A stretch of DNA of 64,000 bases from a virus. Lineage: Duplodnaviria > Caudoviricetes. The stretch lies in IMG/VR virus record IMGVR_UViG_3300010163_003659, positions 31,901-95,900 of that record. One strand, given 5' to 3'. A program made the position numbers and the translations under genes. The notes beneath the pieces were generated by a model. The model did no database searches. It was not told the DNA's origin and saw only the letters and a list, made by a program, of their open reading frames with translations. How positions within the stretch are numbered: position 1 is the first letter of the stretch; every line of letters starts with the position of its first letter. Below are positions 711-31,283 of the stretch, piece by piece.

Positions 711-722
711 GGAAATATCGAG

Positions 723-1058: not shown

Positions 1059-1109
1059 TTTAAGAGATATGTAACTCTTTTACATAACTGGAATACGGAA
1101 GGAAGAAGT

Positions 1110-1328: not shown

Positions 1329-1340
1329 GAGGCAACGACT

Positions 1341-1541
1341 ATGGCTCATAAAGAAAAGTATTGTATGTACTGGTACTGTAAAAGGAACGGAGGAACTACT
1401 TGCTGGGACTGGGGAAATAAATGGGCAGGAAGACCTTGCCCTAATGATGAACGTTGTGAAAAGTATCGAATCTGTAAAAACTGCAATGGTGTTATGGGAG
1501 AGTGCCGGACATACCAGAAAGTGAAGCGGGGTGAATTGTAA
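1341..1541 (+). CDS. Small Cys-rich phage protein
   Basis: AGGAGG RBS; stop overlaps next start. Confidence 0.6.
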   Translation: MAHKEKYCMYWYCKRNGGTTCWDWGNKWAGRPCPNDERCEKYRICKNCNGVMGECRTYQKVKRGEL

Positions 1542-2447: not shown

Positions 2448-2752
2448 TGAACATTAATGATTTGATTTGTGAACTTTTAGAAGAGCCTGTGACACAAGAG
2501 GATAATGGCATAGAGTTCACAAGCAGAAGCGTAGAGCTGATACATGAAATTGCAGAAATGTGTAATGAGATTCCCATTGTGCAGAAGACAAAGGAGCAGG
2601 CGGAAGACTACGCAGAGGGGTTATCTGCAGAGCAGGTATATATGGATATGCTAGTTAAGATTGTGGAGGCACCGACGGCAATTCACATGAAAATGTCGGC
2701 AAAAATGCTGATACCGATTATAAGTCGGAAGCTGAAAGAGAGGGGATTGTGA
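2447..2752 (+). CDS. Phage hypothetical protein
   Basis: GGAGGT RBS; TAATG coupling. Confidence 0.65.
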   Translation: MNINDLICELLEEPVTQEDNGIEFTSRSVELIHEIAEMCNEIPIVQKTKEQAEDYAEGLSAEQVYMDMLVKIVEAPTAIHMKMSAKMLIPIISRKLKERGL

Positions 2753-3306
2753 TGGATAGAAAAAAGACAACGGAGTTCCTTGGGAACTTGCTCATTTCAG
2801 ATAGGTTTGGAGGAATAGGAAAATATTGGGCGAAGGAAGTCAGCATAGATCCATGGGCGGCCAAAGGCAAACCTAAAAGGGTTGACTATATGCAATTCGT
2901 TCCAGCTGGGCAGTGCTCTGTGTCAGATATAGAAAAAGGTATATTTGTCTGCTATGAAATCAAGAGCTGCAAGCAGGATGTTTACAGTGGAAACGGATTA
3001 AATTTTCTCGGAGAGAAGAACTACATAGTGACAACAATGGAATGTTATAAAGACTTGTTGCAGGATTTTCGAGATGGAACATTTGCAAGACATCTGCACG
3101 AAGTAGCTCCAGAATCATCTTCGCATTTTGGAATAATGGTAGCAATACCTTTTATGTCTGAAATGACGGATGAATTTGAAAATCCAACAGAAATTGATTG
3201 TGAGAATGGTCGATGGAAGCTGGCCGTTATACAGCAATGTGTCCCAGGACTAAGAAAAAAACCAATGACAGAGCTATTGTTTTGTATGCTGAGAAGTGGG
3301 CATTAA
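2749..3306 (+). CDS. Putative PD-(D/E)xK nuclease-fold protein (MmcB-like)
   Basis: E..RVDY..CYEIKSC motif spacing. Confidence 0.5.
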   Translation: MMDRKKTTEFLGNLLISDRFGGIGKYWAKEVSIDPWAAKGKPKRVDYMQFVPAGQCSVSDIEKGIFVCYEIKSCKQDVYSGNGLNFLGEKNYIVTTMECYKDLLQDFRDGTFARHLHEVAPESSSHFGIMVAIPFMSEMTDEFENPTEIDCENGRWKLAVIQQCVPGLRKKPMTELLFCMLRSGH

Positions 3307-4063
3307 AGAATGGGAGGAATGTAGAGTGATAAGACCTATTTTGTTTAATACAGACATGGTTAAATCAGTATTGGACGGAAGAAAAACAGTAACTAGACGA
3401 TGTGTAAAAGCAAAGAGCAAAAATGCTTGTGGGTTCTATGTTACATTCAGAAAATCAGACAATGCGTTTATGGGTGTATATGATTATGACGAAAATGAAA
3501 TGCAGTATGATAATCAACAGACACAGCCTGCATATCCGGGAGATATTCTATGGGTAAGAGAAACATGGAGAGTAGGGGCATGGGACATTCAAAATCAAAT
3601 GATAGCATTTGATTATAAAGATGGAACCTGCGGAGAACTTACATACATACATGACAGGGAATTGCTTGAAAGACTGGTAAACCAATCAAGAGAGAATGCC
3701 CAAAAAGCCGGGTGCAAATACAATGGTGCTGATTTTATCTGGAAAAAAGGGAAATCTCCTTGCCGGTGGCATCCTTCTATCCACATGTCAAAAGAAGCGG
3801 CTCGTATCTGGCTCAAGGTTACGGATGTGAGAGTGGAGCGGTTACAGGATATAAGTGGTATGGATGTATTAAAAGAGGGAGTTAATAGCCATGTGCATCC
3901 AGAAGCGGACTATTTTGACGTGAATCAACGAGAAATGTTTCAAAGTCTATGGAATTCCACAATAGATAAAAAGCAGATTGATACATACGGATGGGAAGCT
4001 AATCCATGGGTGTGGGTGATAGAATTTGAACGGTGCGAAAAACCAGAGGGGTGGTGCGTATGA
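3296..4063 (+). CDS. ASCH/PUA-like phage protein (true start may be ~3326)
   Basis: RPILFNxxMV..GRKTVTRR, GDILWVRETW, WHPSIHM, VERLQDIS, W.ANPWVWVIEF motifs. Confidence 0.7.
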   Translation: MGIKEWEECRVIRPILFNTDMVKSVLDGRKTVTRRCVKAKSKNACGFYVTFRKSDNAFMGVYDYDENEMQYDNQQTQPAYPGDILWVRETWRVGAWDIQNQMIAFDYKDGTCGELTYIHDRELLERLVNQSRENAQKAGCKYNGADFIWKKGKSPCRWHPSIHMSKEAARIWLKVTDVRVERLQDISGMDVLKEGVNSHVHPEADYFDVNQREMFQSLWNSTIDKKQIDTYGWEANPWVWVIEFERCEKPEGWCV

Positions 4064-4263
4064 TTTGCCTGAATTGTGGAAGAAAACTAAGAAGTGCAGC
4101 AAGCAGGGAGGCGGGGTATGGACCTGTCTGCTACAGAAAAATGTTCGGTACCAGCCTGCGAAGCAGTCGCAAAGACAGTGTTTCAGTGACGGCTGATACC
4201 CCCTACTACAATATCCCTGGTCAAATGACGATGGATGAATACCTGCAGAGAGATTCAGAATGA
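4060..4263 (+). CDS. Zn-finger protein (DUF6011-like)
   Basis: CxxCGRKL...S...GYGPVC. Confidence 0.65.
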   Translation: MICLNCGRKLRSAASREAGYGPVCYRKMFGTSLRSSRKDSVSVTADTPYYNIPGQMTMDEYLQRDSE

Positions 4264-4363
4264 ATGGAAAAAGGAGAGTGCTTTCGCAACCCTCCCAACA
4301 GACAGTTATATTATATCATAATTCGATATGAATTAGAAATAAATTTCAAGGAGGTGCGAAAGC

Positions 4364-4954
4364 ATGGATAGCCAGACAACAGACAATAAGACTTTAGTGG
4401 TTCTGACACATGAACAGCTAAAGGATATTTATGAGAATGCGGCTGCTATTGGAGCGAAAGAGGCTCTGAAAATGTTCGAGCAGGAACGGAAGAAAGAGCA
4501 GGGGAAAAGAGCGGATCGGCGGCTGAGGAATACCAAGCTGCTGCTTCGTAATTATCATATGCTGAAGGAACACGCAGAAAATTCAGTTTTTGGAAGAACT
4601 CAGATGGAGGAATCCGCAATAGATATTCTGGAATCAATGATGTCAATGTACGACAATGAGGTAATTATCGAAAGCATAAAGCGGAGCGCCACCAGAACTG
4701 CAGTTATTGTTTCCCATATAGAAACAATGTTTGGGCTGTATGAGGCGTATTGTGGCAAGGCTCCAAACCGGGAAATTGAAATGAGGCGGTACGAGGTTGT
4801 ATGGGATATGTATATGGCGGATAATACCTTATCGGCAAAGGAGATTGCAGATAAGCAGAACATATCTACTAGAAATGTATATGAGGACATCAAAGTTGCG
4901 ACAGAAAGATTATCAGCCCTTATTTTTGGGGTGGATGGATTGAAAGTTCATTAA
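4364..4954 (+). CDS. Putative late-gene transcriptional activator with C-terminal HTH
   Basis: RLRNTKLLLRNY; C-terminal sigma-region-4-like HTH; lies before packaging module. Confidence 0.6.
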   Translation: MDSQTTDNKTLVVLTHEQLKDIYENAAAIGAKEALKMFEQERKKEQGKRADRRLRNTKLLLRNYHMLKEHAENSVFGRTQMEESAIDILESMMSMYDNEVIIESIKRSATRTAVIVSHIETMFGLYEAYCGKAPNREIEMRRYEVVWDMYMADNTLSAKEIADKQNISTRNVYEDIKVATERLSALIFGVDGLKVH

Positions 4955-5039
4955 ATCCGCCATCTGCAAAAATTCTTCCTTGATTTTTCAATATAAAAGT
5001 GAGAAAATTGTACTCGTAAAATTCTGAATCGAACATCGG

Positions 5040-5071
5040 AGGAAGTCTGAGGCTATCGGACTTCCTTTTTT
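5040..5071 (+). terminator. Intrinsic terminator-like hairpin
   Basis: GGAAGTCTGA..TCGGACTTCC followed by T-run. Confidence 0.5.
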
Positions 5072-5151
5072 CGTGCAGTTTTTCCGAGAAAGGAGAGAAT
5101 CAGACACAGGAAAGCATGAAGCTCCTCCAATATAAAAAATGGAGGAAAAGC

Positions 5152-6537
5152 ATGGATTATACTTTGATTGTGCTGTTGACCTATGCAGTAACAATGTTTG
5201 GGGTAACAGTATTTATGACGAAAAAAGAGAACAATATCGAGAAATTCTGTGTTGGAAACAGGAATGCCGGCTGGATGGTGTCGGCATTGAGCATAGCTGC
5301 CACATGGATATGGGCGCCAGCTCTGTTCACATCAACTGAGAATGCCTACACAAAGGGTTTTGCAGGGCTCTTTTGGTTTCTGGTACCGAACGTACTGTGT
5401 CTGATATTGTTCATTCCCTTTGCAAAGAAGATAAGGGAAGAAATGCCGGAGGGAATTACATTGTCCGGCTATATGTATGGGAAATATCATTCCAAAGCTG
5501 TGAAAAACGTATATCTGTTCCAACTCGGCGCATTGTCGGCATTATCAACGGGAGTGCAGCTGTTGGCGGGCAGCAAGATATTAAGTATGCTTACCGGGAT
5601 ACCGTTCGCAGCTATGACAATTATTATGGCTGCGATTGCATTTTCATACTCACAGTTCTCCGGGATAAAAGCATCAATACTGACAGATGCGCTCCAGATG
5701 GTATTCATGTTGGCCGCCAGCATCGGTTTTGTTGCTTTTGGTGTAAAGAATGGTGGAGGGTTGGAAACACTGGTTACGGGTTTAGGAGGAGCCGCAGGGG
5801 ATGCCGGATCATTATTCTCAAAGAGAGGATGGGAAATCTTTTTAGGATTCGGACTTCCAACAACGATAGGACTTATCTCAGGACCGTTTGGAGACCAGTG
5901 CTTTTGGCAGAGGGCATTTTGTGTTAGAAAAGACAGAATAGGTAGGGCTTTCTTTGTGGGAGCGCTGCTGTTTGGGATTGTGCCTTTGTCAATGGGTGTG
6001 CTTGGCTTTATCGGTTCTGGCATGGGATATGTCGCAGCGGATACCGGAATAATCAATTTTGAATTGATAAGCACACTATTCCCGGCATGGGCGGTCATCC
6101 CGTTCCTGTTTATGATTGTATCGGGGCTGCTGTCGACGATAGATAGCAACTTGTGTGCAATATCATCCCTCACAACAGACATTTTCAAGGAAAAGACACT
6201 CGGAAAAACAAAGTTCGCTATGATTTTACTGTTGGCTGTTGGAATTACCGTAGCCAACATACCAGGATTGACAGTAACGCACCTGTTCCTGATGTACGGA
6301 ACATTAAGGGCTGCTACCCTGCTCCCGACGATATTTACCCTTAAAGGAATAGAATTGAAACCGAGGGGAATTGTTGCAGGAATTATATCTGCTTTGATTA
6401 TCGGCTTGCCGATATTCGGATATGGAAATATACAGGGAATTGCGATTTATAAGACCGCAGGCAGTCTTTTGACAGTTATTCTTTCTGGAGCGGTGGCTCT
6501 GGCAGTAAGCAGAAAGAGAGGTGTACGGAATGGGTGA
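5152..6537 (+). CDS. Sodium:solute symporter (SSS) family transporter
   Basis: ~13 hydrophobic helices; ALSIAATWIWAPALF, GIKASILTDALQ, DQCFWQRAF, GLLSTIDS motifs. Confidence 0.85.
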   Translation: MDYTLIVLLTYAVTMFGVTVFMTKKENNIEKFCVGNRNAGWMVSALSIAATWIWAPALFTSTENAYTKGFAGLFWFLVPNVLCLILFIPFAKKIREEMPEGITLSGYMYGKYHSKAVKNVYLFQLGALSALSTGVQLLAGSKILSMLTGIPFAAMTIIMAAIAFSYSQFSGIKASILTDALQMVFMLAASIGFVAFGVKNGGGLETLVTGLGGAAGDAGSLFSKRGWEIFLGFGLPTTIGLISGPFGDQCFWQRAFCVRKDRIGRAFFVGALLFGIVPLSMGVLGFIGSGMGYVAADTGIINFELISTLFPAWAVIPFLFMIVSGLLSTIDSNLCAISSLTTDIFKEKTLGKTKFAMILLLAVGITVANIPGLTVTHLFLMYGTLRAATLLPTIFTLKGIELKPRGIVAGIISALIIGLPIFGYGNIQGIAIYKTAGSLLTVILSGAVALAVSRKRGVRNG

Positions 6538-7315
6538 TGTACTTGGCAGAAAGCAGAGGATACAAAACTCTGATTGGATAGATGCATTTGGGAAAATAGA
6601 ACAGCTGGTGTCGAAGAAGGAACTGGATCAGCTGGTCGAAAAGACAGTAAAAGAGATTAAGAAGAAAACCAAAGGGAAGAAGGCCGCCTATGCATGGAGC
6701 GGTGGAAAGGATTCCCTGGTACTCGGTGAAATCTGCCAGCGGGCAGGGATAACCCCTTGCGTCCTCGTAATCAGTAATTTGGAGTATAAAGCATTTATAG
6801 AATGGGTAGAGGGGCATAAGCCTCCGGAATTGTCCATAATCAACACAGGGCAGGATATAAAATGGTTGGCCGATCATCTGCAGATGCTTTTCCCACAGGA
6901 CAGCAAATTTGCGGCAAGGTGGTTTCAGATTGTACAGCATAGAGGTCAAACAAAATATTACAAGGAGCAGGAACTGGATATGCTGCTGCTTGGAAGGCGG
7001 AGAGCTGACGGAAATTATGTTGGCAAGGGAGATAACATTTACACCAACGGACAGGGGGTAACAAGATACAGTCCCATGTCTGATTGGACGCATGAGCAGG
7101 TGTTGGCATATATCCATTATTATAATCTGGAAATGCCGCCGATTTATGACTGGAAAAACGGTTATCTCTGCGGAACGCATCCATGGCCGGCAAGGCAGTG
7201 GACCGGGAGCGTGGAAAATGCCTGGGCAGAAATTTACGAGATTGACAGCTCCATTGTAACCGAGGCGGCAGAGCATATCCAGAGTGCAAAAGACTTTCTG
7301 GAAAGCCTTAAATAA
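6530..7315 (+). CDS. PAPS-reductase-family (PP-loop) protein
   Basis: AWSGGKDS, LLGRRRADG, PMSDWT...YI. Confidence 0.85.
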   Translation: MGDVLGRKQRIQNSDWIDAFGKIEQLVSKKELDQLVEKTVKEIKKKTKGKKAAYAWSGGKDSLVLGEICQRAGITPCVLVISNLEYKAFIEWVEGHKPPELSIINTGQDIKWLADHLQMLFPQDSKFAARWFQIVQHRGQTKYYKEQELDMLLLGRRRADGNYVGKGDNIYTNGQGVTRYSPMSDWTHEQVLAYIHYYNLEMPPIYDWKNGYLCGTHPWPARQWTGSVENAWAEIYEIDSSIVTEAAEHIQSAKDFLESLK

Positions 7316-9820: not shown

Positions 9821-10651
9821 ATGCCGAGGGCGCCGAGCGAAAAAATGATTGAAGCTGAAAAGCTGTTTAATGATGGAATGGCAATGGTGGAAATCGCAAA
9901 GAAACTGGGAGTTTCTGATGGTACTGTCCGTAGCTGGAAGAACAGATACGGATGGGCTGACAAGTCAAAAAAAAACAAACGCAACGTTGCAAAAAAAGAC
10001 GGTAAGAAAACTGCAACGTTGCAAAAGAAAAAGAAGGGCGGGCAGCTGGGAAATCAAAATTCTAAGGGAGCATCTAAAGGCAAGGGTAACCCAAAGCCAG
10101 TACCGCCACCCGATAGAACAAAACATGGTGGATATGTTCCTGTGTTCATGGATGCCCTCGATGAAGATGAGCAGGAACTCGTTGCAACGATTCCAGAAGA
10201 TACAGAACGGCAGCTCATGGAGCAAATACAGCTTTTTTCCATTCGGGAGCGCAGAATATTAAAAGCAATCAATAAATACCGGGAGCAAAAGGGAGACGTT
10301 GCGGTTGCTGATGTTACCAGATTTGAGGATAAGAGAATCTTCAAGGATAAGGAGGAAGAGGCAGAATACAATAGGCGCCAGAAGAAAAAAGTTGATAATG
10401 AAGAGATTCTTCCGGGTAAGTCCTACAGCATACAGACGCATACATCAAATAAGGATATGATAATAGCGAGGCTGGAACAGGAGCTTTCGACTGTTCAAAG
10501 CAAAAAGACAAAGGCTATTGAAGCATTGTCGAAATATCGCTTAGAAAAAGCAAAGTTGGAAAGTGAAAGTGCTGGAAATGATGCTGTTGACGATTGGATT
10601 GCAGCGGTTCTTGAGGAAGATGAGGGAGAGGATGTGAGTGGTGATGAATAA
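9821..10651 (+). CDS. terS: Terminase small subunit (N-terminal HTH)
   Basis: EIAKKLGVSDGTVRSWKNR HTH, GGQLGNQN, KHGGY; directly upstream of terL. Confidence 0.85.
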   Translation: MPRAPSEKMIEAEKLFNDGMAMVEIAKKLGVSDGTVRSWKNRYGWADKSKKNKRNVAKKDGKKTATLQKKKKGGQLGNQNSKGASKGKGNPKPVPPPDRTKHGGYVPVFMDALDEDEQELVATIPEDTERQLMEQIQLFSIRERRILKAINKYREQKGDVAVADVTRFEDKRIFKDKEEEAEYNRRQKKKVDNEEILPGKSYSIQTHTSNKDMIIARLEQELSTVQSKKTKAIEALSKYRLEKAKLESESAGNDAVDDWIAAVLEEDEGEDVSGDE

Positions 10652-18566: not shown

Positions 18567-19220
18567 ATGGGACAAAGAGTTAAAAACGAACTAAATAATG
18601 TCTCGATTGGAGGCAGCTATATTGGCAGGAGTAGTATAGTTAATAATTATTATATTCATCAGGCAGAAACAGGAACAGAAGGGAGCAGGGATGACAAAAC
18701 AATATTCATTTCCTATAACTGGCATGATGGGAAGATTGCAGACAGGATTGACAGGCATCTGTCAGGGCTTCCAAGTGTAACTGTAAAAAGGGATGTGCGT
18801 GACATTGGCCCATGGAAAAGCATCCGAGAGTTTATGGAAGGCATCCGGCAGCAGGATTATGCGGTTTTCATTGTCAGCGATTCTTATCTGAAATCAAAAA
18901 ATTGTATGTTTGAGGTTACAGAAATGATGAAAGAACAGGAGTATGCGGACAGAATTTTCCCGGCCGTTGTGGAAACCGACATATATGATCCGTTGGTACG
19001 TGCCAGATACATAAGTTACTGGCAGCAGGAATGTGATAAGCTGGAGGCTGCTGTAAAGGGGCTGGATCCGGCCAATGCAGTTGAGCTGGCAGCAGATTTG
19101 AAATGTTATAAAAATATTGCATCTTCTGTAGGGGAGTTTTTAAGCATAGTTGCAGACAGGAACAATCCGGATATCCATGAGGTAGAGGTACAGATAGAGA
19201 AAGCATTACTGAAGAACTGA
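18567..19220 (+). CDS. TIR-domain protein with N-terminal N/G-rich motif
   Basis: IFISYNWHD, SDSYLKSKNCMFE (catalytic-type Glu), RIFPAV; GGAGGTG RBS before ATG 18567. Confidence 0.88.
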   Translation: MGQRVKNELNNVSIGGSYIGRSSIVNNYYIHQAETGTEGSRDDKTIFISYNWHDGKIADRIDRHLSGLPSVTVKRDVRDIGPWKSIREFMEGIRQQDYAVFIVSDSYLKSKNCMFEVTEMMKEQEYADRIFPAVVETDIYDPLVRARYISYWQQECDKLEAAVKGLDPANAVELAADLKCYKNIASSVGEFLSIVADRNNPDIHEVEVQIEKALLKN

Positions 19221-19239
19221 CTGATAAGGGGGAATTACT

Positions 19240-21621
19240 ATGGATCAGAGAATAAATAATCACTTTAAGGGTGGTAACATAGAAGGCGATTATGTAGGGG
19301 GGAATCAGACAAAAAACTACTATATATCCATGTTTCAAGATTTAGAGCGAGAGTTTGTTGTTACACATAATGCCGATATCAAGCCAGTGTCCTATTTTAC
19401 TGGACGAGAAACAGAGCTGCAGGAGTTGCGCCAGCGGCTAGAGGAAGGGCGCAAGTCTGTTCTAGTAAGCGGGATGGGTGGCATTGGAAAAACACATATC
19501 TGCCGGAAGCTGTTTGAGGAATACACCAAAAAACATGCTGATGGTGAGGATATACCTTTCTGCCATATTGGATATGTTGAGTATAATGGGGATATGGGCA
19601 GCAGTCTGCAAACCTGTTTAAAATTTAAGGAGCAGGACGATTCGGGGCAGAATCAAGAAGCGGCATGGAGAGAACTGGAATATCTAGCGGCAGGTGGGAA
19701 ACTTCTGCTGTTTGTGGATAATGTAGACAAGCCTGTAAACGCTGATCCAGGATTGCAGAGGCTAAAGGGGATTCCCGGAGCGGTTATTTTGACATCTCGG
19801 CAGGCTTCTTTTAGTGATGAATTTGAACCATACCCGATAGGTTTCCTTGATATGGAGCAGTGTAAAGAGATTTATGAGAAAATCCGGTTTAAGGGCAGTA
19901 AGAGAAAAGTCAGACTGGAGGAAGAACAGGATTTGAAATATGTCATAGAGGATTTGGCTGGGAGGCATACCATTACAGTTGAACTTCTGGCGCATTTGGC
20001 ACGTACAAAAACATGGACAGTGAAAAGGCTTAGAGAAGAGTTGGGGCAAAAAGGGTTCTGTCTGGCATTTCATAAGAACGGGAAACTTGTCAATATCCAA
20101 AAATCTTATGAAGTGCTTTATGATTTGTCCAAACTGACAGAAGCAGAGCAAAACATTCTGGAGGCTTTTTCAATATTTCCGTATATTTCTTTGGAGGCAG
20201 AGATATGTAATCAATGGCTGCTTGCGGATGCTGGAGTAAGTGAAGAAGATGATATCTTAATGGGATTATATCAGAAAGGTTGGCTGCAGTTTGATATAGA
20301 GCAGGGAAGCTATGCTATGCATCCTGTGTTTGCGAAATTTATTTATGAAAGATGTAAGCCAAAATTGGAAGGGCATCGTGGATTGATAGAGGGATGTCAG
20401 AAGTGTTTGGAAATACCAGAAAGCGGTTCTGTTATGGAGTGCCAGCATTTTATTCCTTTTGCAGAGAATATTTTGAAAAAAATCAGCATGGAAAATGAAA
20501 TAGAACATGTTCAGTTTATGGACATATTGGCATATTCACTACAACATACAAGGGAGTATGCAAAAGCAGAAGTATTATACGAAAAGATTTTACAGATTAG
20601 AAAGAAATTGTATGGACAAAAACATCCAGATACAGCTACCGGTTATAATAATTTAGCAGCTGCATATGCTGAACAGGAAAAGGATAAAGAAGCGAAAAAA
20701 TTGTATAAAAAAGCTTTGTTGATAAGAGAGAAAGTGTTAGGGGAGGAGCATCCAGATACAGCTGACAGTTATAATAATTTGGCAGGGGTTTATTCCAAGC
20801 AGGGGAAGTGCTGGAAAGCAGAGGGACTACATAAAAGAGCCTTGTTGATAAGAGAGAAAGTGTTAGGGGAGGAGCATCCAGATACAGCTGACAGTTATAA
20901 TAATTTGGCAGTGATATATGCTGAACAAGAAAAGTACAGGAAAGCAGAAAGGTTCTGTAAAAGAGCCTTGTTGATAAGAGAGAAAGTGTTAGGGGGGGAG
21001 CATCTAGAGACAGCTAATAGTTATAATAATTTGGCAAGGATATATGCTGGTCAAGAGAAATATAAGGAAGCAGAAGAACTGCATAAAAAAGCCTTGTCGG
21101 TAAGAGAGAGGGTGTTGGGAGAGGATTATCCAGATATAGCTTATAGTTATGATAGTCTTGCAGAGATAAATGAGATTCGAGAGAAGTATAAAGAAGCAGA
21201 AGAATTATATAGAAAAAGCCTACAAATAAGAATGAAAGTGCTAGGGGAAGAATATCCAGATACAGTCATGAGTTATCTCAACTTGGCAAGTGTGTTGAGT
21301 GAACAAGGAAAGTATGGGAAAGCAGAAGAGTTGTATAAAAAGGGTATACAGATAGGTGAAAGCGTTATGGGAAAAGAACATTCATATACAGCTATAGGTT
21401 ATAATAATTTGGCAGGAGTATATATAGAACAAGGAAAGATTGACAGGGCAATAATATATTATCATAAGGCTTATCAAGTTTTTGTGAACAAATTTGGAAG
21501 AGATGATCCAGATACACAAGTTGTATATGGAAATTTGGAAGCGATATACAGAGCATATAATCCAGAAGGCAATTTTGAACAGTGGCTGGAAGAAAAGATG
21601 AAAGAAGCAGATTTGGATTAA
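19240..21621 (+). CDS. STAND/NB-ARC ATPase + ~8 TPR repeats (NLR-like protein 1)
   Basis: FTGRETEL, GMGGIGKT, LLFVDN, ILTSR, MHP; 42-aa TPRs (LGEEHPDTA.SYNNLA). Confidence 0.92.
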   Translation: MDQRINNHFKGGNIEGDYVGGNQTKNYYISMFQDLEREFVVTHNADIKPVSYFTGRETELQELRQRLEEGRKSVLVSGMGGIGKTHICRKLFEEYTKKHADGEDIPFCHIGYVEYNGDMGSSLQTCLKFKEQDDSGQNQEAAWRELEYLAAGGKLLLFVDNVDKPVNADPGLQRLKGIPGAVILTSRQASFSDEFEPYPIGFLDMEQCKEIYEKIRFKGSKRKVRLEEEQDLKYVIEDLAGRHTITVELLAHLARTKTWTVKRLREELGQKGFCLAFHKNGKLVNIQKSYEVLYDLSKLTEAEQNILEAFSIFPYISLEAEICNQWLLADAGVSEEDDILMGLYQKGWLQFDIEQGSYAMHPVFAKFIYERCKPKLEGHRGLIEGCQKCLEIPESGSVMECQHFIPFAENILKKISMENEIEHVQFMDILAYSLQHTREYAKAEVLYEKILQIRKKLYGQKHPDTATGYNNLAAAYAEQEKDKEAKKLYKKALLIREKVLGEEHPDTADSYNNLAGVYSKQGKCWKAEGLHKRALLIREKVLGEEHPDTADSYNNLAVIYAEQEKYRKAERFCKRALLIREKVLGGEHLETANSYNNLARIYAGQEKYKEAEELHKKALSVRERVLGEDYPDIAYSYDSLAEINEIREKYKEAEELYRKSLQIRMKVLGEEYPDTVMSYLNLASVLSEQGKYGKAEELYKKGIQIGESVMGKEHSYTAIGYNNLAGVYIEQGKIDRAIIYYHKAYQVFVNKFGRDDPDTQVVYGNLEAIYRAYNPEGNFEQWLEEKMKEADLD
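20716..21037 (+). repeat. 126-bp near-identical TPR-coding tandem repeats
   Basis: Units at 20716, 20842, 20968; 70 bp identical between first two. Confidence 0.85.
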
Positions 21622-21825
21622 GTCATAGGCACGATATTGGCTAATGGTAATGGATGCACTGATTCTGCTGCCGTACAGCAGTAGATATTGTTATGTTGAA
21701 ATAGTGGAATTTATGCAGGACCTTAGTGATGAGGAACTGGAGACATTGAACAGGCAAGTAAATCAGGCGATGGAGCATGTTCGCATCGTTTACAAATGAA
21801 ACAAAATGTGGAAGGGGAATGTACC

Positions 21826-22422
21826 ATGAAGAGAGAAACAACTCCGATCAGAGTGACGGATAAGATTATGGAATTATGCAGCGGGATAGTACCGGATGCG
21901 AAACCGGAATATGTTTCGGTTAAAGTGCAGGAATGGAGCAGACCAATGGAATGTTTTCCCAATGTGGAGCGTATGGTTCAAGAGCAGGGCGGGCAGCAGA
22001 TTAATGGTTGGGCAATCTGGCAATGGGCGAATATCCTTGTAGAGGCCGAGGCTCATTCTGTGTGGCAAAGTCCGAAAGGGGAACTGATGGATATTACCCC
22101 TCATGACAATGGGGAAAGGGAAATCCTATTCCTGCATGATGCTGGCATGGTGTATTCCGGGCAGAGCATTGGAAATGTAAGGCTTGCCATCACCGGATCA
22201 CCGCTGGCTGCTGAAATGGTCGATCTCGGCGATAAGATAGATGCGGTCATGTGCAGTTACAAGCCAGGAACGGAAATTCCACTTTGGGAGCTACGGCGCC
22301 GACTGCTGCCACTAAAGGAGCAGAGGGAGGCAATCGTGGGGATGTTGAACCAGAAAGCCAGCAGGAATGCCCCTTGCCCATGCCAGTCTGGATTAAAGTA
22401 CAAGAAATGCTGTGGGAGGTAA
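21826..22422 (+). CDS. SEC-C motif protein
   Basis: C-terminal RNAPCPCQSGLKYKKCCG; N-terminal CFPNV..H..DITP. Confidence 0.8.
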   Translation: MKRETTPIRVTDKIMELCSGIVPDAKPEYVSVKVQEWSRPMECFPNVERMVQEQGGQQINGWAIWQWANILVEAEAHSVWQSPKGELMDITPHDNGEREILFLHDAGMVYSGQSIGNVRLAITGSPLAAEMVDLGDKIDAVMCSYKPGTEIPLWELRRRLLPLKEQREAIVGMLNQKASRNAPCPCQSGLKYKKCCGR

Positions 22423-22425
22423 GTT

Positions 22426-23007
22426 ATGATATTTGATGTTATTTTCAGCATCCTTTCAACAGTTATTAGTTCAACTTCTCTTATATTTATTAAAGAGGTT
22501 TTTGACAGAAAGCAGAACCATCAGGAAAATAAAGAAATCCAAGAAGATGCTGAGAAGATTATTGGAGATACATTTAAAAGTGATGATGTAATTGACTTGA
22601 TGCTAAAAAATGTTCGTGAATTGAGAGAGTATTACATAATCAGCAAAAGACAGGCAACAAATGCGTTTTCTGCTTCACTGATAGTCTGCTTTTTGGGTTT
22701 TATTGTTTATATTGCGGGTATCGCTGTATTTGTTATTTCTGGAGAAAATGCATTACTGTTAACTACCATATCAGGAACAATAGTGGAAGTAATTTCCGGA
22801 TTATTTTTCTGGCTTTATAGACATGCAATTAAGCAGTTAAATATTTATCATCAGAGATTAGGTACAACAGAGAAGTATCTGACAGCAATTCGTTTAGTGG
22901 ATAAAATGGGACAGGATAAGCATGATGATATGTACAAGCATATTATTGAATGTGTTTTAATAGATAATCGTATGCAATCAAATGAGGAAAATGAAAAAGA
23001 GCAGTAA
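22426..23007 (+). CDS. Membrane protein, TRADD-N-associated 2TM-like
   Basis: YY..KRQA..F..S followed by two TM helices ending ISGLFFWLY. Confidence 0.6.
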   Translation: MIFDVIFSILSTVISSTSLIFIKEVFDRKQNHQENKEIQEDAEKIIGDTFKSDDVIDLMLKNVRELREYYIISKRQATNAFSASLIVCFLGFIVYIAGIAVFVISGENALLLTTISGTIVEVISGLFFWLYRHAIKQLNIYHQRLGTTEKYLTAIRLVDKMGQDKHDDMYKHIIECVLIDNRMQSNEENEKEQ

Positions 23008-23174: not shown

Positions 23175-23203
23175 TTGCGTAAGCATTAAACCAATATTAT
23201 AAT
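23175..23203 (+). promoter_or_regulatory. Promoter TTGCGT-N17-TATAAT for second effector-NLR operon
   Basis: Same hexamers and spacing as 18480-18508. Confidence 0.7.
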
Positions 23204-23218: not shown

Positions 23219-23461
23219 ATGATAGGGGGAATGGTGGAAATGATGGAAGTGTTTAATGTTATTAGTGGAGTATGTTCCATTGTTGGACTGTCTGTTTCTC
23301 TTTTTACGGCCAGCAAGGTGATTAAAATAACGCAGAACATTAACAGTGGCAATGTAGATGACCATTCAAAGGTTGTTAATGGAGGCAAAGGCAATACATA
23401 TAATGGGCCATATGCAGGGAGGGATTATACGAATGAGACGAGAAGTGGACAACAGAAATAA
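23219..23461 (+). CDS. Single-TM micro-protein with C-terminal N/G-rich GPYAGRD motif (start may be 23240/23243)
   Basis: Hydrophobic VFNVISGVCSIVGLSVSLF; tail shares motif with NLR2 N-terminus. Confidence 0.75.
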   Translation: MIGGMVEMMEVFNVISGVCSIVGLSVSLFTASKVIKITQNINSGNVDDHSKVVNGGKGNTYNGPYAGRDYTNETRSGQQK

Positions 23462-25820
23462 AGACAGCAATTTCTATGGGCCATATGCTGGCAGGGATAT
23501 GAATGTTACCAATATCATAATGCTTCAAGATTCAGAGCGTGAATTTGTCGTTACGCACAATGCTGATATTAAGCCAGTGTCATATTTCACAGGCAGGGAA
23601 ACGGAACTGGAAGAACTGCGTCAGAGGATAGATGAGGGACGCAAGTCGGTTCTGGTGAGTGGCATGGGCGGTATTGGTAAGACTCATATCTGCAGGAAGT
23701 TGTTTGAAGAGTACACCAATAAACATGCGAAAGGTGAAAATATACCTTTCTGCCATATTGGATATATTGAGTACAATGGGGACATGGGCAGCAGTTTACA
23801 GAACTGTCTAAAATTTAAGGAACAGGATAACCCAGAACAGAACCAGGCGGCAGCGTGGAAAGAATTAGAATATTTGGCAGCAGACGGGAAACTGTTGCTG
23901 TTTGTTGACAATGTGAATGTGTCGGTGAGGGAGGATGCAGGGCTGGAAAGGCTGAAACAGATTCCTGGAGCAGTGGTGCTGACTTCCAGAAGGACATCTT
24001 TCGGCAAGGAGTTTGAACCGTACAGGATTGGTTTTTTGAGTACAGAGCAATGCATAATGGTTTATGAGAAAATCCGGTATGAGAATAGCAGCAAGAAAGT
24101 GCCGGAAGAAGAGATACTGGATTTAGAATATATCATAGAGAATATGGCAGCAGGACATACCATTACCATTGAATTTTTTGCACATTTAGCCGAAACAAAG
24201 CAATGGAGTATAAAAAGGCTGCGTGAGGAACTGGACAGCAAAGGGTTTCGGTTGGAATACAAGGATGAAGAGGACAAGTTGATAAATATTCAGGAAGAAT
24301 ATGAAAAGTTGTATGATTTGTCTGTTCTGACAGAGGCGGAAGGGAACATACTGGAGGCGTTTTCTGTATTTCCGTATATTCCTTTATCTGCGGAAATTTG
24401 TAATCAATGGTTGCTTTTTGATGCGGGGGCAAGTGAAGATGATGATATTCTGATGGGACTGTATCAAAAAGGGTGGTTGCAGTTTGATGTGGAGCAGGAG
24501 AGCTATGCTATGCATCCAGTATTTGCAAAGTTTATTGATGAGAGGAAGAAACCAAAATTTGAAGAGCATCGTGGATTGATAGAGGTATGTCAAAAGTGTT
24601 TGGAAATACCAGAAAACGGCTCTGCTTTGGATTGTCAAAGATATATTCCGTTTGCAGAAAATATTATAAAAAAGATAGATATGAAATCAAGTATAAAGGA
24701 AGCAAGATTTATAACAGAACTTGCTTATTTGTTGCAATATATAGCAGAGCATGAAAAAGCGGAGGAATTGTATGAAAAAAGTTTGAGAATACAGGAAAGA
24801 GTGCTGGGGGAAGAACATTCAGATACCGTTGCGATCTATAATAATCTGGCATATGTATATAATTGCCAAGGAGAGTACAAAAGATCGAAAGAGCTATATG
24901 AAAAGAGTCTGTGGATAAGGGAAAAAGTGTTTGGAGAGAAACATCCAGCTATGGCATACGATTATAATAATTTGGCAATGATGTATGAGAGGCAAGGGAG
25001 ATATAGGGAGTCAGAGGACTCGGTTGTTGATAATATGGAGAATGAAGGAAGTGCAAGAAAAAGAGAAAGACGAAGAAAAGGAAATATTTTTGGAAATGTA
25101 CTATCAATAATTTCTTTGGTAATTAGTTTATTATCGTTATTGATATCTTACAGGACTATCCAATTAGAAGAAGTGGAATATCAACCGCATTTTATTTGTA
25201 CTACAAAAAATAATGAGGAATATAAAAAACCTGAAAGTTTCTATTTTAAGATTCACACGATTAAAAATATTGGAGTGCCGATATCTAACGTGGAATTTGA
25301 TATACAAGAAGTTTTATGTTTTCAAAGGGCTTTAACCAGTGAAAGTATGGATGTGTTGATTTGGAAAAAAACAGATATTCTAAACGAGGATAAAGATATT
25401 AAATACGATTTAGATAAACAAGAAATTGTAATTGAAGGAATCCGTTTAGAATATATAGAATATATGCTTAATAGCTATTTTAACAGTGATAGCAATATTT
25501 TTTTTTATGAGCCATATCGCATTAAAGTATATAATGTGACTTGTAAAAGAATCTTAAATATACAGTATACAAATAGGGAGGGCGTAAACTGTAGGGAATG
25601 TTATGAGTTAAAAGAAAATCATATTTCTCTTTTAGACAAAATTGTGAAACGTGAAGATTATAACGAAATAGTTGATTTTATACATGGAAGTAAGTATGAA
25701 TTAGGGGAGGTGTATCAAGATAATATGGAACAAGCACAAGATATGATAACTAATATGTTGGGAATTAATATAGAAAGAGAGAAAGAGGAGTTAGCAAAAC
25801 AATATAACAAGAAAGATTAA
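23433..25820 (+). CDS. STAND/NB-ARC + short TPR array fused to TM-anchored C-terminal domain (NLR-like protein 2)
   Basis: Paralogue of NLR1 from QDxEREFVVTHNADIKPVSYFTGRETEL onward; RBS GGGAGG before ATG 23433. Confidence 0.88.
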   Translation: MRREVDNRNKDSNFYGPYAGRDMNVTNIIMLQDSEREFVVTHNADIKPVSYFTGRETELEELRQRIDEGRKSVLVSGMGGIGKTHICRKLFEEYTNKHAKGENIPFCHIGYIEYNGDMGSSLQNCLKFKEQDNPEQNQAAAWKELEYLAADGKLLLFVDNVNVSVREDAGLERLKQIPGAVVLTSRRTSFGKEFEPYRIGFLSTEQCIMVYEKIRYENSSKKVPEEEILDLEYIIENMAAGHTITIEFFAHLAETKQWSIKRLREELDSKGFRLEYKDEEDKLINIQEEYEKLYDLSVLTEAEGNILEAFSVFPYIPLSAEICNQWLLFDAGASEDDDILMGLYQKGWLQFDVEQESYAMHPVFAKFIDERKKPKFEEHRGLIEVCQKCLEIPENGSALDCQRYIPFAENIIKKIDMKSSIKEARFITELAYLLQYIAEHEKAEELYEKSLRIQERVLGEEHSDTVAIYNNLAYVYNCQGEYKRSKELYEKSLWIREKVFGEKHPAMAYDYNNLAMMYERQGRYRESEDSVVDNMENEGSARKRERRRKGNIFGNVLSIISLVISLLSLLISYRTIQLEEVEYQPHFICTTKNNEEYKKPESFYFKIHTIKNIGVPISNVEFDIQEVLCFQRALTSESMDVLIWKKTDILNEDKDIKYDLDKQEIVIEGIRLEYIEYMLNSYFNSDSNIFFYEPYRIKVYNVTCKRILNIQYTNREGVNCRECYELKENHISLLDKIVKREDYNEIVDFIHGSKYELGEVYQDNMEQAQDMITNMLGINIEREKEELAKQYNKKD

Positions 25821-29780: not shown

Positions 29781-30101
29781 GAAACTGACAGGGCTGTGAC
29801 GCACGTAGAGGCCTTATTTTGGACCGAAAAGAGAAAAGGTGATAATAATACCGTTAATGAAATAAAAAGCCCTGTAGGGGAAATTAGAGGGCATTGGAAG
29901 AAAAGGTGATTATGGGGAAAGCAGAAAACAGAGGCTCCCGCCATGCTGCAACATGGGAGAGCCCATAAGAGCTAAGGCACATGATAAGAAAGACCAAAGC
30001 ATTTGTATTATAACTGAATTTAGAGACGTTCACAATAAAAACTGAATATGGATTGAGGCGGTTCTGCTGCCTCTTTGCGTAACAGAAAGGAGCTGGGGGA
30101 C

Positions 30102-31283
30102 ATGGCAGAGAACAAAAAGAAACAGTTGCCGCCGGGGATTTCACTGCGTAAGGATGGCAGGTACCAGGCGAGATATACATTTAACGGCAAACGCTATTCA
30201 ATTTATGGCAAGGACTTGAAGGAAGTGCAGAAAAAGCTTCGGGATGCCAAGTATGAAATGGATCATGGCATATTCGCCAAGCCGGATAAGGTAACGGTAG
30301 ATTCATGGTTTAAGGTATGGAAAGAGGAATATGCAGCCAACAGCATGAGGGAGAACACCCTCGCCCATGTAGACAGCATGTATAGATACCACATAAAGCC
30401 GGAGATAGGGAACATGAAAATACAGGATGTACGAACCGAACATATCCAGATGCTGCTTAACAAGATGAAAAAGCAGGAATATTCTTCGGATTTTATGAAA
30501 AGAGTCAGAAATGTTGTGAGCCAGATGTTTAAGCAGGCATACAGGAATGACATGATTATGCGGAATCCAGTAGAGAATGCAGTTACCCCATCCGGAAAGA
30601 CAAAAAAGGAGCACAGGGTACTGACGGAACAGGAGCAGGCGTTGTTCCTGGAATATGCAAAGGAAACTGAATATGAGCTGGTTTTCGTGCTCGGATTTTC
30701 TACAGGAATGAGGATAGGCGAGATACAGGCCCTGCAGTGGCAGAACATAGATTTCAAAAATCTGGAAATCAGCATAGAGGGTACACTTGTCAAGGTGGAT
30801 GGAAAGGAGTATGTAAAAGGGCCTACAAAGACAAAGAGCAGCATCCGCACCGTTCCACTGCTCCCTGATGTAGCAAAACAGCTAAAGAAGTACAAAAAAG
30901 AACAGTCGGAATACCGCATGATGTTAGGGGCAGAGTGGCAGCAGGTAAGGGGGCTGGAGGATTTGCTGTTCTGTACTGCAGTGGGCAGGCCGCTTTCAAG
31001 GAGCGTTTTGTACAATGCTATTGACCGGATTATTGAGCTGATTAATCATGATGAGAGGATAAGGGCAAAAGCAGAGGGACGGAAAGCGGCAGTGTTTGAG
31101 CATTTTTCAAGCCACACCATGAGACACACCTTTGCGACAAGGGCTTTAGAGAATGGTATTCCTCCAAAGGTTGTCCAGGAACTTCTGGGGCACAGCACTA
31201 TAAAGACTACAATGGATATATATACTCATGTATTGCCTAAGACAAAGAATGAGGAGATACAGAAAATTGCCAGTCTGTTCTGA
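30102..31283 (+). CDS. int: Tyrosine integrase of the embedded element
   Basis: [22 protein letters not shown]...TMDIYTH; N-terminal arm-binding domain. Confidence 0.95.

Follow-up and report, generated by a model that had tools for sequence, protein, structure and literature searches.

What might a membrane peptide of about 72 residues do when its gene overlaps the start of an NLR gene and its tail repeats the N-terminus of that NLR? The question is raised by a pair of genes in a 64,000-nucleotide stretch of viral DNA (the window, by which we mean the whole stretch analyzed). The record is a provirus, and the pair lies among phage regulators, integrase, and terminase genes. The elements on which the argument turns are as follows.

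23175..23203, plus strand: promoter-like element, TTGCGT, a 17-nt spacer, and TATAAT, recognized by reading, putative function.
23224..23230, plus strand: Shine-Dalgarno sequence (AGGGGGA) of the micro-protein gene, 9 nt 5′ of 23240.
23240..23461, plus strand: micro-protein gene, 73 aa, or 72 aa from 23243, with its TAA stop codon at 23459–23461.
23249..23311, plus strand: N-terminal transmembrane (TM) helix of the micro-protein, residues 4–24, followed by basic K-V-I-K-I, placed by hydropathy, AlphaFold2, and alignment.
23372..23425, plus strand: candidate effector-side coupling motif, micro-protein residues 45–62, ending G-P-Y-A-G-R-D, placed by the match and by co-variation, disordered in the AlphaFold2 model.
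23417..23424, plus strand: Shine-Dalgarno sequence of NLR2, GGGAGGGA, inside the G-R-D codons of the micro-protein gene and 8 nt 5′ of the NLR2 ATG.
23433..25820, plus strand: NLR2, with an N-terminal motif, an NB-ARC NTPase, and some 2.5 TPRs; a basic stretch and a TM helix then lead to an unrelated domain of about 220 aa.
23445..23498, plus strand: candidate sensor-side coupling motif, NLR2 residues 5–22, placed by the match, in a segment that AlphaFold2 leaves disordered.

The micro-protein gene is genuine, and purifying selection on it is strong. Its frame is open from 23219 to 23461, and the first-pass annotation had let it begin at 23219; the Shine-Dalgarno sequence at 23224–23230 and the starts of the homologues place the likely start at one of two candidate ATG codons, 23240 or 23243, where the M-[DE]-x-F-N that begins all homologues is found. 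A strong Shine-Dalgarno sequence lies 6–12 nt before this start in all related loci, and TTGC(G/T)..N17..TATAAT recurs at an equal distance upstream of the micro-protein gene in many of them; a promoter scan did not list the TTGCGT/TATAAT element of the window because its −35 hexamer is too far from consensus. The homologues form 77 protein clusters of 62–98 aa with 54–100% identity, mostly from Lachnospiraceae. The dN/dS ratio of the gene is 0.06 in the helix, 0.15 in the linker, and 0.47 in the tail, with synonymous sites saturated. The ORF is conserved, a point on which the earlier proposal could have failed. The further remark that annotation could easily miss it does not hold, as gene callers do find it and report a hypothetical protein in many assemblies; it is unannotated, not missed. 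With the micro-protein as query, Pfam gave nothing above its cut-off (DUF5362, at E = 0.008, falls below its own), PADLOC gave no match, and an ESM Atlas search returned unnamed clusters only, of 71–76 aa and from Bacillota.

The single TM helix proposed at first pass was confirmed, with a Kyte-Doolittle mean of 2.01 over residues 4–22 and one AlphaFold2 helix spanning residues 2–36 (pLDDT 70–80), after which the tail is modeled as disordered. Seven helix residues are invariant in the homologue alignment (G10, C12, S13, G16, S20, T23, and A24), and lysine makes up 11% of the tails. A profile made from that alignment and run against PDB sequences found only a chance match, to an anion exchanger (E = 1.2), and no solved Bell, HeLo, Bab, or HET-S structure, which leaves the helix without a link to those folds.

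The match between the tail and NLR2, described earlier as 10 identities in 18 residues around GPYAGRD, was confirmed. Compared without gaps in windows of 18 residues, the micro-protein and the first 52 residues of NLR2 share at best 10 identities, with a BLOSUM62 score of 52, a score reached by 0 of 5000 composition-preserving shuffles (mean 16.7, sd 4.5, maximum 42). The accompanying DNA repeat at 23403 and 23476 is also there, with 21 identities in 23 nt by reading and 19 in the 21 nt of the seven core codons; core identity this high is particular to the window and to locus L002, the other loci having 12–15 of 21 nt. Across 14 distinct pairs, cognate partners score 51.1 on average and non-cognate partners 40.2, and none of 20,000 partner permutations reached the observed cognate sum. 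The same specificity is seen within the window, where the tail reaches a score of 51 with NLR2 and of 31 with NLR1, and at locus L025 the arginine has become glycine on both sides (V-V-G-G). Different codons are used at 67 of the 118 residues common to both motif copies, which argues that selection on the protein, and not gene conversion, keeps the copies alike; for the family, we rejected gene conversion as the source of the match on these codon differences, while locally, in the window, it may have played a part. Judged from these alignments, the motif is co-evolving with its cognate partner at the protein level.

The two genes also appear to be linked in translation. The 29-nt overlap claimed at first pass is present, the NLR2 ATG lying at 23433 and the micro-protein gene ending at 23461, and overlaps of 8–29 nt occur in related loci. 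The micro-protein gene overlaps the NLR start in 10 of 21 NLR loci that were found independently with the NLR as query, and again in the loci that were reached from micro-protein homologues and have an NLR downstream. Wherever the gene occurs in these loci, it comes immediately before a sensor gene with the matching N-terminal motif and overlaps it. The idea that the first motif copy doubles as the ribosome-binding site of NLR2 likewise stood up, GGGAGGGA being placed 8 nt before the ATG and retained in nearly all related loci, where the micro-protein gene keeps GGG AGG GA(T/C) for G-R-D; in the NLR copy, 11 of the 14 loci listed use CGT for the arginine of G-R-D. The two motif copies lie a constant 73 nt apart, or 70 nt in one locus. 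We also considered a frameshift fusion of the two genes and rejected it, as it is only in the window and at loci L001 and L002 that the open NLR frame extends 5′ of its ATG; in most loci it begins right after a stop codon.

Pfam matches in NLR2 are NB-ARC, AAA_16, TPR_12, and TPR_10, and AlphaFold2 leaves residues 1–52, ahead of the NOD, disordered (pLDDT below 50). Its relatives consist of the motif, NB-ARC, and TPRs only, and at most related loci the pair is found on its own; by domain content, the sensor is one without an effector domain of its own. Paralogous NLRs, by comparison, go with a TIR protein that has a matching N-terminal motif or are fused to a metallophosphoesterase, which speaks for the micro-protein as effector. 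The NLR2 of the window is atypical in that its TPR array is cut short and joined to a foreign TM domain: it has about 2.5 TPRs against 7–8 matched TPR_12/TPR_10 stretches in NLR1, and NLR relatives align to residues 1 to about 535 only. The C-terminal 261 aa are absent from 21 of 21 NLR relatives found and have one homologue, P0230, in which the NLR body is missing and a micro-protein continues in frame into the same domain. Two other possible relationships of this domain were discarded: it shows no similarity to the long family members P0133 and P0136, and of the 254-aa neighbor genes, that of L028 is a split-off TPR part and that of L023 is unrelated.

The lost TPRs and the foreign TM domain may mean that the local copy is inactive or rewired. 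It is possible, though on balance unlikely, that the family is functional and the copy in the window is a decaying or rewired remnant, in which a deletion took most of the TPR sensor and an in-frame fusion to a downstream membrane protein left the micro-protein without a working trigger. The short TPR array, the early end of the alignment, the single homologue of the C-terminal part, and the split or truncated NLRs at L023, L028, and L009 all fit such decay. They are opposed by the intact state of the micro-protein gene, the promoter-like element, both Shine-Dalgarno sequences, and the NB-ARC motifs, and by the C-terminal domain itself, whose 85% identity between two diverged contexts, in frame in both, suggests that it is maintained.

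We favor, with a probability of roughly 0.6, a two-gene immune module in which a micro-protein effector and an NLR sensor act through templating of the tail motif and membrane damage. Among bacterial anti-phage systems, the 72-residue protein would then probably be the smallest cell-killing arm of the "tag-coupled" kind. Its carrier is an element with an integrase, situated between the terminase genes of a provirus of Lachnospiraceae. In the topology that we favor, the micro-protein helix would sit in the membrane with an acidic N-terminus of about three residues outside and its lysine-rich side and tail in the cytoplasm. The disordered motif of about 18 residues, ending G-x-Y-x-G-R-D, copies the exposed N-terminal peptide of a sensor translated from the same mRNA by way of the Shine-Dalgarno sequence inside the G-R-D codons. 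Once the TPR sensor meets its trigger, presumably a phage product, the NB-ARC domains would oligomerize and gather their N-terminal motifs. These would adopt a beta fold (cross-beta, BASS1-like) and recruit or template the tails of membrane-anchored micro-proteins, and the clustered helices, with their conserved Gly/Ser/Cys/Thr stripe, would breach or depolarize the membrane, so that the infected cell dies by abortive infection. We infer polymerization and membrane damage, and likewise the topology, the cross-beta templating, and the putative anti-phage role; the copy in the window may or may not be active. Clustering also collapses the membrane potential in the case of small defense effectors with one or two TM helices and of phage pinholins, but these are triggered by nucleotide ligands, concentration, or other domains, not by a peptide motif common to effector and sensor, and no sequence relationship to them was found. 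Speaking against the favored scheme are the lysine-rich tails, the proline in the motif of the window, the truncation of NLR2, the single motif copy in fused metallophosphoesterase-NLRs, the failure of the profile to find a solved Bell, HeLo, or Bab structure, and the rarity of the system. The interpretation put forward at first pass is supported in part, by the real gene, the matched and co-evolving motif, and the effector-less sensor, and the start at 23219 and the ease of being missed have been given up.

By analogy, we read the micro-protein/NLR pair as a minimal new variant of known amyloid-signaling effector/sensor pairs, Bab/Agp and Bell/NLR. The Bell/NLR pairs of BASS1–10 resemble it in having collinear genes, effector then NLR, that often overlap, in carrying the motif at the C-terminus of the effector and the N-terminus of the NLR, in their NB-ARC and TPR sensors, and in the use of TIR proteins as alternative effectors and of "all-in-one" fused forms. 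The published examples of BASS cluster-01 include V-Y-Q-A-G-R-D-Q-H-I-T-E-R, A-G-R-D-L-Y-V-N, and A-G-R-D-M-T-I-T (PMC8086366), and our motifs lie close to them by eye: Y-A-G-R-D-M-N-V-T in the window, Y-A-G-R-D-L-Y-I-T at loci L010 and L029, and Q-V-A-G-R-D-I-N at L041. The likeness, judged by eye from the PMC8086366 supplement and not by a profile, is in the core, A-G-R-D followed by x-x-[IV]-[TN], or more narrowly A-G-R-D-[LMQ]-x-[IV]-[TN]. A BASS-type pair has adjacent collinear genes separated by little or overlapping, a motif of about 20–25 residues common to both proteins, and a partner of the NB-ARC or NACHT type with TPR or WD repeats and without an effector domain; these features are all found here, and the Bell domain is not; the Bell/NLR effectors carry this HeLo-like helical bundle, whereas AlphaFold2 gives our protein one helix. 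The pairs differ further in that BASS1 has Y-Q-A-G-R-D and our motif Y-A-G-R-D, one residue shorter before A-G-R-D, and in that our tails are lysine-rich, whereas published BASS motifs are lysine-poor (Dyrka et al., bioRxiv 10.1101/2020.01.06.895854). They differ in host as well: the Bell/NLR study linked NLRs and BASS to multicellular Actinobacteria and Cyanobacteria and reported both as "rare or absent" in Firmicutes (Dyrka et al. 2020, PMC8086366), whereas our pair belongs to Lachnospiraceae with mobile elements.

Bab/Agp, an amyloid-controlled abortive infection system from a prophage hotspot (Ibarlosa et al., bioRxiv 10.1101/2024.11.07.622273), is encoded in E. coli ECOR25 and assigned to BASS11. 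It shares with our module the adjacent genes, the status of prophage-borne defense cargo, and the proposed signaling by motif templating to a membrane-targeting executioner. Bab, however, has 109 aa and a helical "Babybell" bundle that sheathes the first helix, compared with 72 aa and one unsheathed helix here; its partner is TPR-GreA/B-C-PIN instead of NB-ARC/TPR, and our host is a Firmicute. The HET-S/NWD2 pair of Podospora anserina is a more distant parallel. There too, the N-terminal motif of an NLR templates the C-terminal motif of a separately encoded executioner, and an N-terminal hydrophobic helix of HET-S inserts into the membrane, but HET-S is a eukaryotic protein of allorecognition, built from a globular HeLo domain of about 220 residues and a prion-forming domain with two repeats.

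Coupling could be real without being amyloid, which we consider rather unlikely. The tail and the NLR peptide would then assemble, on the active oligomer of the NLR, into a beta-sheet or zipper of finite size and fixed stoichiometry, clustering a fixed number of helices in the manner of an induced-proximity death-fold adaptor and without self-propagating templating. The pairing and co-variation fit this equally well, and the lysine-rich tails, the proline in the motif of the window (G-P-Y-A-G-R-D), and a motif length of only about 18 residues point the same way. So does the single motif copy that persists between effector and NOD in the NLRs fused to a metallophosphoesterase, since the motif may then also act intramolecularly. 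Amyloid templating is favored by the resemblance to BASS1-type motifs, since fibrils and prions are formed by BASS motifs of Bell/NLR pairs, including the BASS1 and BASS3 motifs that were tested (Dyrka et al., bioRxiv 10.1101/2020.01.06.895854). It is also favored by family member P0085, whose long tail has three stretches matching the family profile; by analogy with HET-s and some BASS1/6 effectors, these could be a motif pseudo-repeat.

The micro-protein belongs to a superfamily of 169 representatives (E ≤ 1e-3), mostly of 50–75 aa and with the same helix; P0149, P0157, and P0116 were left out of the neighborhood comparison. A G-[RG]-[DN] sequence occurs within the last 25 residues of 88 of 141 short members, compared with 10.7 expected from shuffled tails. 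Some members precede motif-matched STAND proteins, and others precede effector-less Lamassu LmuA proteins of the Lamassu/ABC-3C type. At these Lamassu loci, L038, L043, and L046, the LmuA homologue consists of the motif and CTD9 (PF20285) or CTD12 (PF20279) only; it is preceded by a micro-protein with a matching tail and followed by MC5/MC8 and an ABC/SMC ATPase. Canonical LmuA has an N-terminal effector domain, usually an enzyme, whereas the LmuA of the micro-protein loci carries the motif instead. The micro-protein and motif occupy the place of that domain, so the micro-protein is likely the effector. LmuA acts after release and oligomerization, which would suit proximity-driven assembly of motifs. 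Searches of the window with Pfam and PADLOC found no Lamassu genes (LmuA-CTD, LmuC, LmuB), and these occur only beside distant micro-protein relatives. The presence of the family beside effector-less LmuA and other STAND NTPases suggests a modular, swappable effector connector, one that current defense-system catalogues do not model (no PADLOC match to the micro-protein).

A two-TM protein with a PF20712 domain (CyanoTRADDas_TM) is encoded at 22426–23007, just upstream of the module. Together with the C-terminal TM domain of NLR2, it is a candidate source of toxicity if the micro-protein serves instead as a tether at the membrane or as a negative regulator, holding or capping the sensor motif. 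We regard this as improbable. NLR2 of the window does have a TM segment and an extra domain of its own, but that domain is confined to this copy among the NLR relatives found, most related loci are lone pairs whose NLR has just the motif, NB-ARC, and TPRs, and in the Lamassu loci the micro-protein is the sole candidate to replace the missing effector domain of LmuA. That the ORF is a mere leader or uORF setting NLR translation, its peptide functionless and its similarity the product of local DNA duplication, is very hard to credit: the overlap, the Shine-Dalgarno sequence of the NLR inside the ORF, and the near-identical core codons of the window would suit it, but the helix is strongly constrained despite saturated synonymous sites and is common to the whole superfamily, and elsewhere the motif copies are alike in protein and not in DNA.

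Under the favored scheme of motif-coupled membrane killing, the module would reduce an executioner to one membrane helix and a tag, and so bears on how little is required for a cell to be killed on command. Amyloid-type signaling would, in addition, be placed on mobile elements of gut Lachnospiraceae, where surveys saw NLRs and BASS as rare or absent. Signaling of this kind, from a sensor to a separate executioner, is established in fungi, and one anti-phage system of E. coli has recently been shown to use it (bioRxiv 10.1101/2024.11.07.622273). More tentatively, the proteins of 50–75 residues with one TM helix and an A-G-R-D-type tail might be plug-in executioners in wide use, and the smallest effectors of regulated cell death known. 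Sensors of no fewer than three unrelated classes, namely NB-ARC/TPR NLRs, other STAND NTPases, and enzyme-less Lamassu LmuA-CTD proteins, would recruit them by cross-beta templating of a common motif about 18 residues long. If this is true, amyloid-type signaling would be a general wiring principle of anti-phage defense, including that of unicellular gut Firmicutes and mobile elements, and no longer a speciality of filamentous bacteria. The pair is small, co-varies, and is present in Eubacterium plexicaudatum ASF492 (locus L010), so that motif specificity, templating, and the orthogonality of the two modules, TIR/NLR1 and this one, can be tested directly. Within the family of that host, 2 of 401 sampled genomes match, one of them through a weak, helix-only match, so the system is rare.

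The micro-protein is encoded in frame 2 of the plus strand of the window, where the open stretch runs from 23219 through the TAA stop codon at 23459-23461. The first-pass annotation had placed the start at ATG 23219, the sole point that needs correction: this start is unlikely and the true one is probably 23240/23243, because a Shine-Dalgarno (SD) sequence lies at 23224-23230 and every homologue begins with M-[DE]-x-F-N at the equivalent position.

23224-23230, plus strand: SD sequence AGGGGGA of the micro gene, 9 nt before ATG 23240
23417-23424, plus strand: GGGAGGGA, coding for G-R-D of the micro tail, 8 nt before the NLR2 ATG
23433, plus strand: ATG of NLR2, 29 nt upstream of the end of the micro gene

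The product, of 72-73 residues, has a hydrophobic helix at residues 4-24 (Kyte-Doolittle mean 2.01 over residues 4-22), then a basic K-V-I-K-I stretch, a polar linker and a tail ending in ...N-G-P-Y-A-G-R-D-Y-T-N-E... Given an alignment of homologues, AlphaFold2 returned a single helix at residues 2-36 (pLDDT 70-80) and disorder in the remainder. Together with the conservation of the gene, this model argues that the micro-protein is a real single-helix protein without a globular domain.

A search of 5.8 billion proteins yielded 77 clusters of homologues (54-100% identity, nearly all 62-80 residues), among which source names are near-absent, the one named member being annotated as hypothetical in a Lachnospiraceae MAG. 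The aligned helices hardly vary, with G10, C12, S13, G16, V19, S20, F22, T23 and A24 among the fixed positions, and the tail is variable; pooled over 15 distinct gene sequences, dN/dS was 0.06 for the helix (synonymous sites saturated), 0.15 for the linker and 0.47 for the tail. By these figures the ORF is conserved, lack of conservation having been named at first pass as a ground for rejecting the reading. A strong SD precedes the micro gene in all loci, and a TTGC(G/T)-N17-TATAAT element in many, each at the same position. The micro-protein is rare, with matches in two of the 401 genomes sampled from the family of Eubacterium plexicaudatum ASF492 (locus L010), one of them a weak helix-only hit.

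Using NLR2 as the genome query, we retrieved 21 NLR loci, most of them in mouse-gut MAGs, from Lachnospiraceae and further Clostridia. A search for micro-ORFs upstream of STAND genes had been proposed at first pass, and in 10 of these 21 loci the micro gene indeed lies directly upstream of the NLR start and overlaps it; loci found via divergent micro-proteins have the same layout. A constant 73 nt separates the motif copies, except for 70 nt in one locus. The 29-nt overlap previously described in the window is borne out, with NLR2 starting at 23433 and the micro gene stop ending at 23461. The NLR2 N-terminus reads M-R-R-E-V-D-N-R-N-K-D-S-N-F-Y-G-P-Y-A-G-R-D and belongs to the first 52 residues, which AlphaFold2 models as disordered ahead of the NB-ARC NTPase region (NOD). 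We recovered the earlier match of 10 identities between the micro tail and this N-terminus in the best ungapped 18-residue window (BLOSUM62 score 52), a score reached by none of 5000 shuffles of both peptides (mean 16.7, SD 4.5, maximum 42), as well as the DNA repeat at 23403 and 23476, whose copies are identical at 21 of 23 nt. The first copy had also been read as the ribosome-binding site of NLR2, which agrees with the position of GGGAGGGA. Nearly all loci encode the effector-side G-R-D as GGG AGG GA(T/C), which is an SD sequence, and on the NLR side the arginine is CGT in 11 of the 14 loci listed; this codon choice shows that the effector-side copy has a dual use.

Co-variation was measured on 14 distinct pairs in an alignment anchored on the G-x-x-x-G-[RG]-[DN] core. 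Tails scored a mean of 51.1 against their own NLR and 40.2 against other NLRs, and none of 20,000 partner permutations reached the observed cognate sum. Since independent drift should give equal cognate and non-cognate scores, the micro tail and its NLR motif co-evolve. For instance, both partners carry G-P-Y-A-G-R-D in the window and L002 and S-E-I-H-G in L008, and V-V-G-G replaces V-G-R-D in both partners of L025. Different codons are used for 67 of the 118 residues common to paired copies, and a near-identical DNA core occurs in the window and L002 only; the similarity is kept at the protein level. The micro tail of the window scores 51 against NLR2 and 31 against NLR1, the sensor of module 1, as would fit neighbouring modules that are insulated from each other, and a tail that evolves faster and co-varies with its partner fits selection for private specificity. 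L023 (2231-5256) and L024 have a different gene order: first a full NLR (N-terminus S-E-I-H-G-N-Y-V-G-N-D), then, after 260 nt, a micro gene whose tail reads S-E-I-H-G-D-V-I-G-R-D, and 31 codons that remain of another NLR.

NLR2-type proteins consist of the motif, NB-ARC and TPRs, without an effector domain. A TIR protein with a matching N-terminal motif precedes NLR1 and the NLRs of L006, L009, L012, L013, L015 and L018, and the two partners co-vary (R-D-Y-I-G-G-N-Q on both in L013, Y-T-G-G-N-S-I in L018). In three loci, a metallophosphoesterase is fused ahead of the motif and NOD.

Window 18567-21621: module 1, TIR protein (about 215-223 aa, motif N-terminal on the effector) and NB-ARC/TPR gene
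L011 2888-5488, L016 183-2831 and L020 3-1439: calcineurin-like metallophosphoesterase-NLR fusions

The fusions have a single G-x-Y-A-G-R-[DN] copy before NOD, decayed in L016, and are "all-in-one" forms retaining the tag. Because paralogous NLRs have a TIR protein or a fused enzyme in the same position, the micro-protein fills the slot that these have elsewhere, and it is the likely effector. Beside intact micro/TIR genes, L028 (1161-3280) has a split NLR, with a 450-aa NB-ARC part, 3 nt and a 254-aa TPR part, and L009 (3998-4858) has a 286-aa NLR fragment ahead of a second, full NLR, which suggests frequent sensor decay or recombination.

When 1.84 billion representatives were searched exhaustively with a profile, 169 family proteins were found at E <= 1e-3, nearly all of 50-75 residues with the same N-terminal helix. 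G-[RG]-[DN] occurs within the last 25 residues of 88 of the 141 short members, compared to 10.7 expected from shuffled tails. DNA context with a gene on the 3' side was readable for five further members; all five downstream genes have a matching motif at their N-terminus, and four overlap the micro gene, the one in L046 starting 23 nt downstream.

Tails of five further members and the downstream proteins
L041/L042: tail N-N-D-I-G-D-G-S-Q-V-A-G-R-D-I-N; downstream N-N-D-I-G-D-R-S-Q-V-A-G-R-D-I-N; 799-aa P-loop STAND-like protein
L038 (Lamassu operon, 4001-6740): tail N-N-V-A-G-R-D-I; downstream N-N-L-A-G-R-D-I; PF20279 CTD12 protein, then MC8 and DUF2326
L046 (Lamassu operon, 277-1311): tail G-D-N-S-x-N...R-D-T-Y-N; downstream matching N-terminus; CTD12 protein
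L043 (Lamassu operon, 500-3671): tail N-Q-A-G-G-N-I; downstream L-Q-A-A-G-D-I; CTD9 protein, then MC5 and AAA_23 ATPase
L044: tail I-I-A-G-R-D; downstream I-I-G-R-D; 516-aa protein with no Pfam hit on record

Lamassu (ABC-3C) is built from three components: CTD, MC and ABC. In the three Lamassu loci, the LmuA homologue consists only of CTD12 or CTD9 and an N-terminal A-G-R-D-type motif, and directly upstream lies the gene of a micro-protein (61-65 aa) that has a single TM helix and a tail matching the motif. As published for Lamassu, the canonical form of LmuA carries an enzyme domain at its N-terminus and acts once it has been released and has oligomerised. Since the motif stands here in place of the enzyme, the micro-protein likely supplies the effector function in trans, for which these loci are the strongest argument; on the same sequence evidence, they show a connector apparently used by oligomerising sensors of different kinds. 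The long tail of P0085 (103 aa) matches the family profile in three stretches, possibly motif pseudo-repeats. Other members (among P0133, P0136, P0208, P0119 and L037 1432-1905) join the same helix to unrelated C-terminal domains of 100-210 residues, and the helix may be a reusable membrane module.

The gene layout is that of Bell/NLR pairs with bacterial amyloid signalling (BASS) motifs, in which gene overlaps are frequent, motifs have a high content of N, G, Q, V and I, TIR proteins can serve as effectors instead, "all-in-one" fusions also occur, and the tested BASS1 and BASS3 motifs gave fibrils and prions (Dyrka et al., bioRxiv 10.1101/2020.01.06.895854). Bell-side motifs of BASS cluster-01, presumably BASS1, include ...R-V-Y-Q-A-G-R-D-Q-H-I-T-E-R, ...Y-Q-A-G-R-D-L-Y-V-N and ...Y-Q-A-G-R-D-M-T-I-T, and another cluster has N-Y-G-R-D-Q-I-N-I (PMC8086366 supplement). 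Judged by eye, the likeness of Y-A-G-R-D-M-N-V-T in NLR2, Y-A-G-R-D-L-Y-I-T in L010 and L029, Q-V-A-G-R-D-I-N in L041 and V-N-Q-A-G-G-D-I-H in the homologue P0116 appears striking. Like BASS motifs, the micro-protein tails are poor in Pro (one in the motif of the window) and Leu; they are, however, Lys-rich (11%), whereas BASS motifs are Lys-poor. The closest functional precedent is Bab/Agp, a system in a prophage hotspot in which Bab is activated by a motif that the neighbouring TPR sensor carries N-terminally, relocalises to the cell periphery and causes abortive infection; the peripheral helices of Bab were suggested merely to sheathe a pore-lining first helix (Ibarlosa et al., bioRxiv 10.1101/2024.11.07.622273). 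With helix, linker and tag but no sheath, the micro-protein looks like this idea at its limit. Lacking a Bell or Babybell domain, the module falls outside the Bell/BASS and Bab families in the strict sense; we found no sequence evidence of homology between its helix and the first helix of Bell/HeLo and do not claim it. By analogy, the module most likely works like these systems.

In the mechanism we propose, the micro-protein would insert with its short acidic N-terminus outside and its K-rich side and tail in the cytoplasm, following the positive-inside rule. A trigger sensed by the TPR array would lead to NB-ARC oligomerisation, and the clustered, disordered N-terminal motifs would form a beta assembly recruiting or templating matching tails. 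Small or hydroxylated residues that never vary (G10, S13, G16, S20 and T23/A24) recur every 3-4 positions, a spacing that sets them on one helix face as a stripe typical of helix packing or lumen lining. Clustering of the helices would then breach the membrane and abort infection. The membrane-damaging effector with a polymerising tail proposed at first pass is supported as far as sequence goes. In the mechanism, the membrane orientation and the residue stripe rest on sequence; sensor oligomerisation, motif assembly with polymerisation, and membrane damage are the parts that we infer. Three features would be new: the minimal single-helix effector, its setting in Firmicute mobile elements, and a micro-effector that Lamassu and other sensors apparently share; we found no description of the effector, the setting or the Lamassu use in a literature search that did not cover Krishnan et al. 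2020.

The window comes from a 95.9-kb provirus in IMG/VR, in which a stretch of about 20 kb with both modules separates the terminase small-subunit gene from the large-subunit and portal genes. Its cargo comprises a sigma factor, Ant, an HTH-M78 regulator, the two NLR modules, Uma2, a DnaD-like replication protein and an integrase.

9821-10651: terminase small-subunit gene
21796-23007: two genes between modules 1 and 2
25035-25820: C-terminal part of NLR2 (basic stretch, TM helix, unknown domain; last 261 residues)
30075-31283: integrase
from 31453: terminase large-subunit and portal genes

A similar backbone bears the micro gene/NLR pair in L029/L030, and within window 9821-32559 the stretch that parts the packaging genes has the look of an integrative element or satellite that inserted into the provirus there. 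NLR2 itself is atypical: about 2.5 TPRs are followed in frame by a basic segment, then a TM helix and finally an unrelated domain (about 220 residues), a C-terminal part absent from all 21 NLR relatives. Among 5.8 billion proteins, these 261 residues have a single homologue, P0230 (338 aa, 85% identical), which carries a micro-protein, both motif copies and the TM domain in one frame and lacks the whole NB-ARC/TPR body. This C-terminus and the architecture of P0230 suggest that the module of the window may be decayed, or rewired into something membrane-anchored; L010 and L029 are examples of intact loci. Between the modules, a 208-aa protein ends in a SEC-C zinc motif, and a 193-aa protein matches PF20712 ("cyanobacterial TRADD-N associated 2-TM") and has a Ser-rich N-terminal helix like that of the micro-protein; the latter could be a third effector-like cassette.
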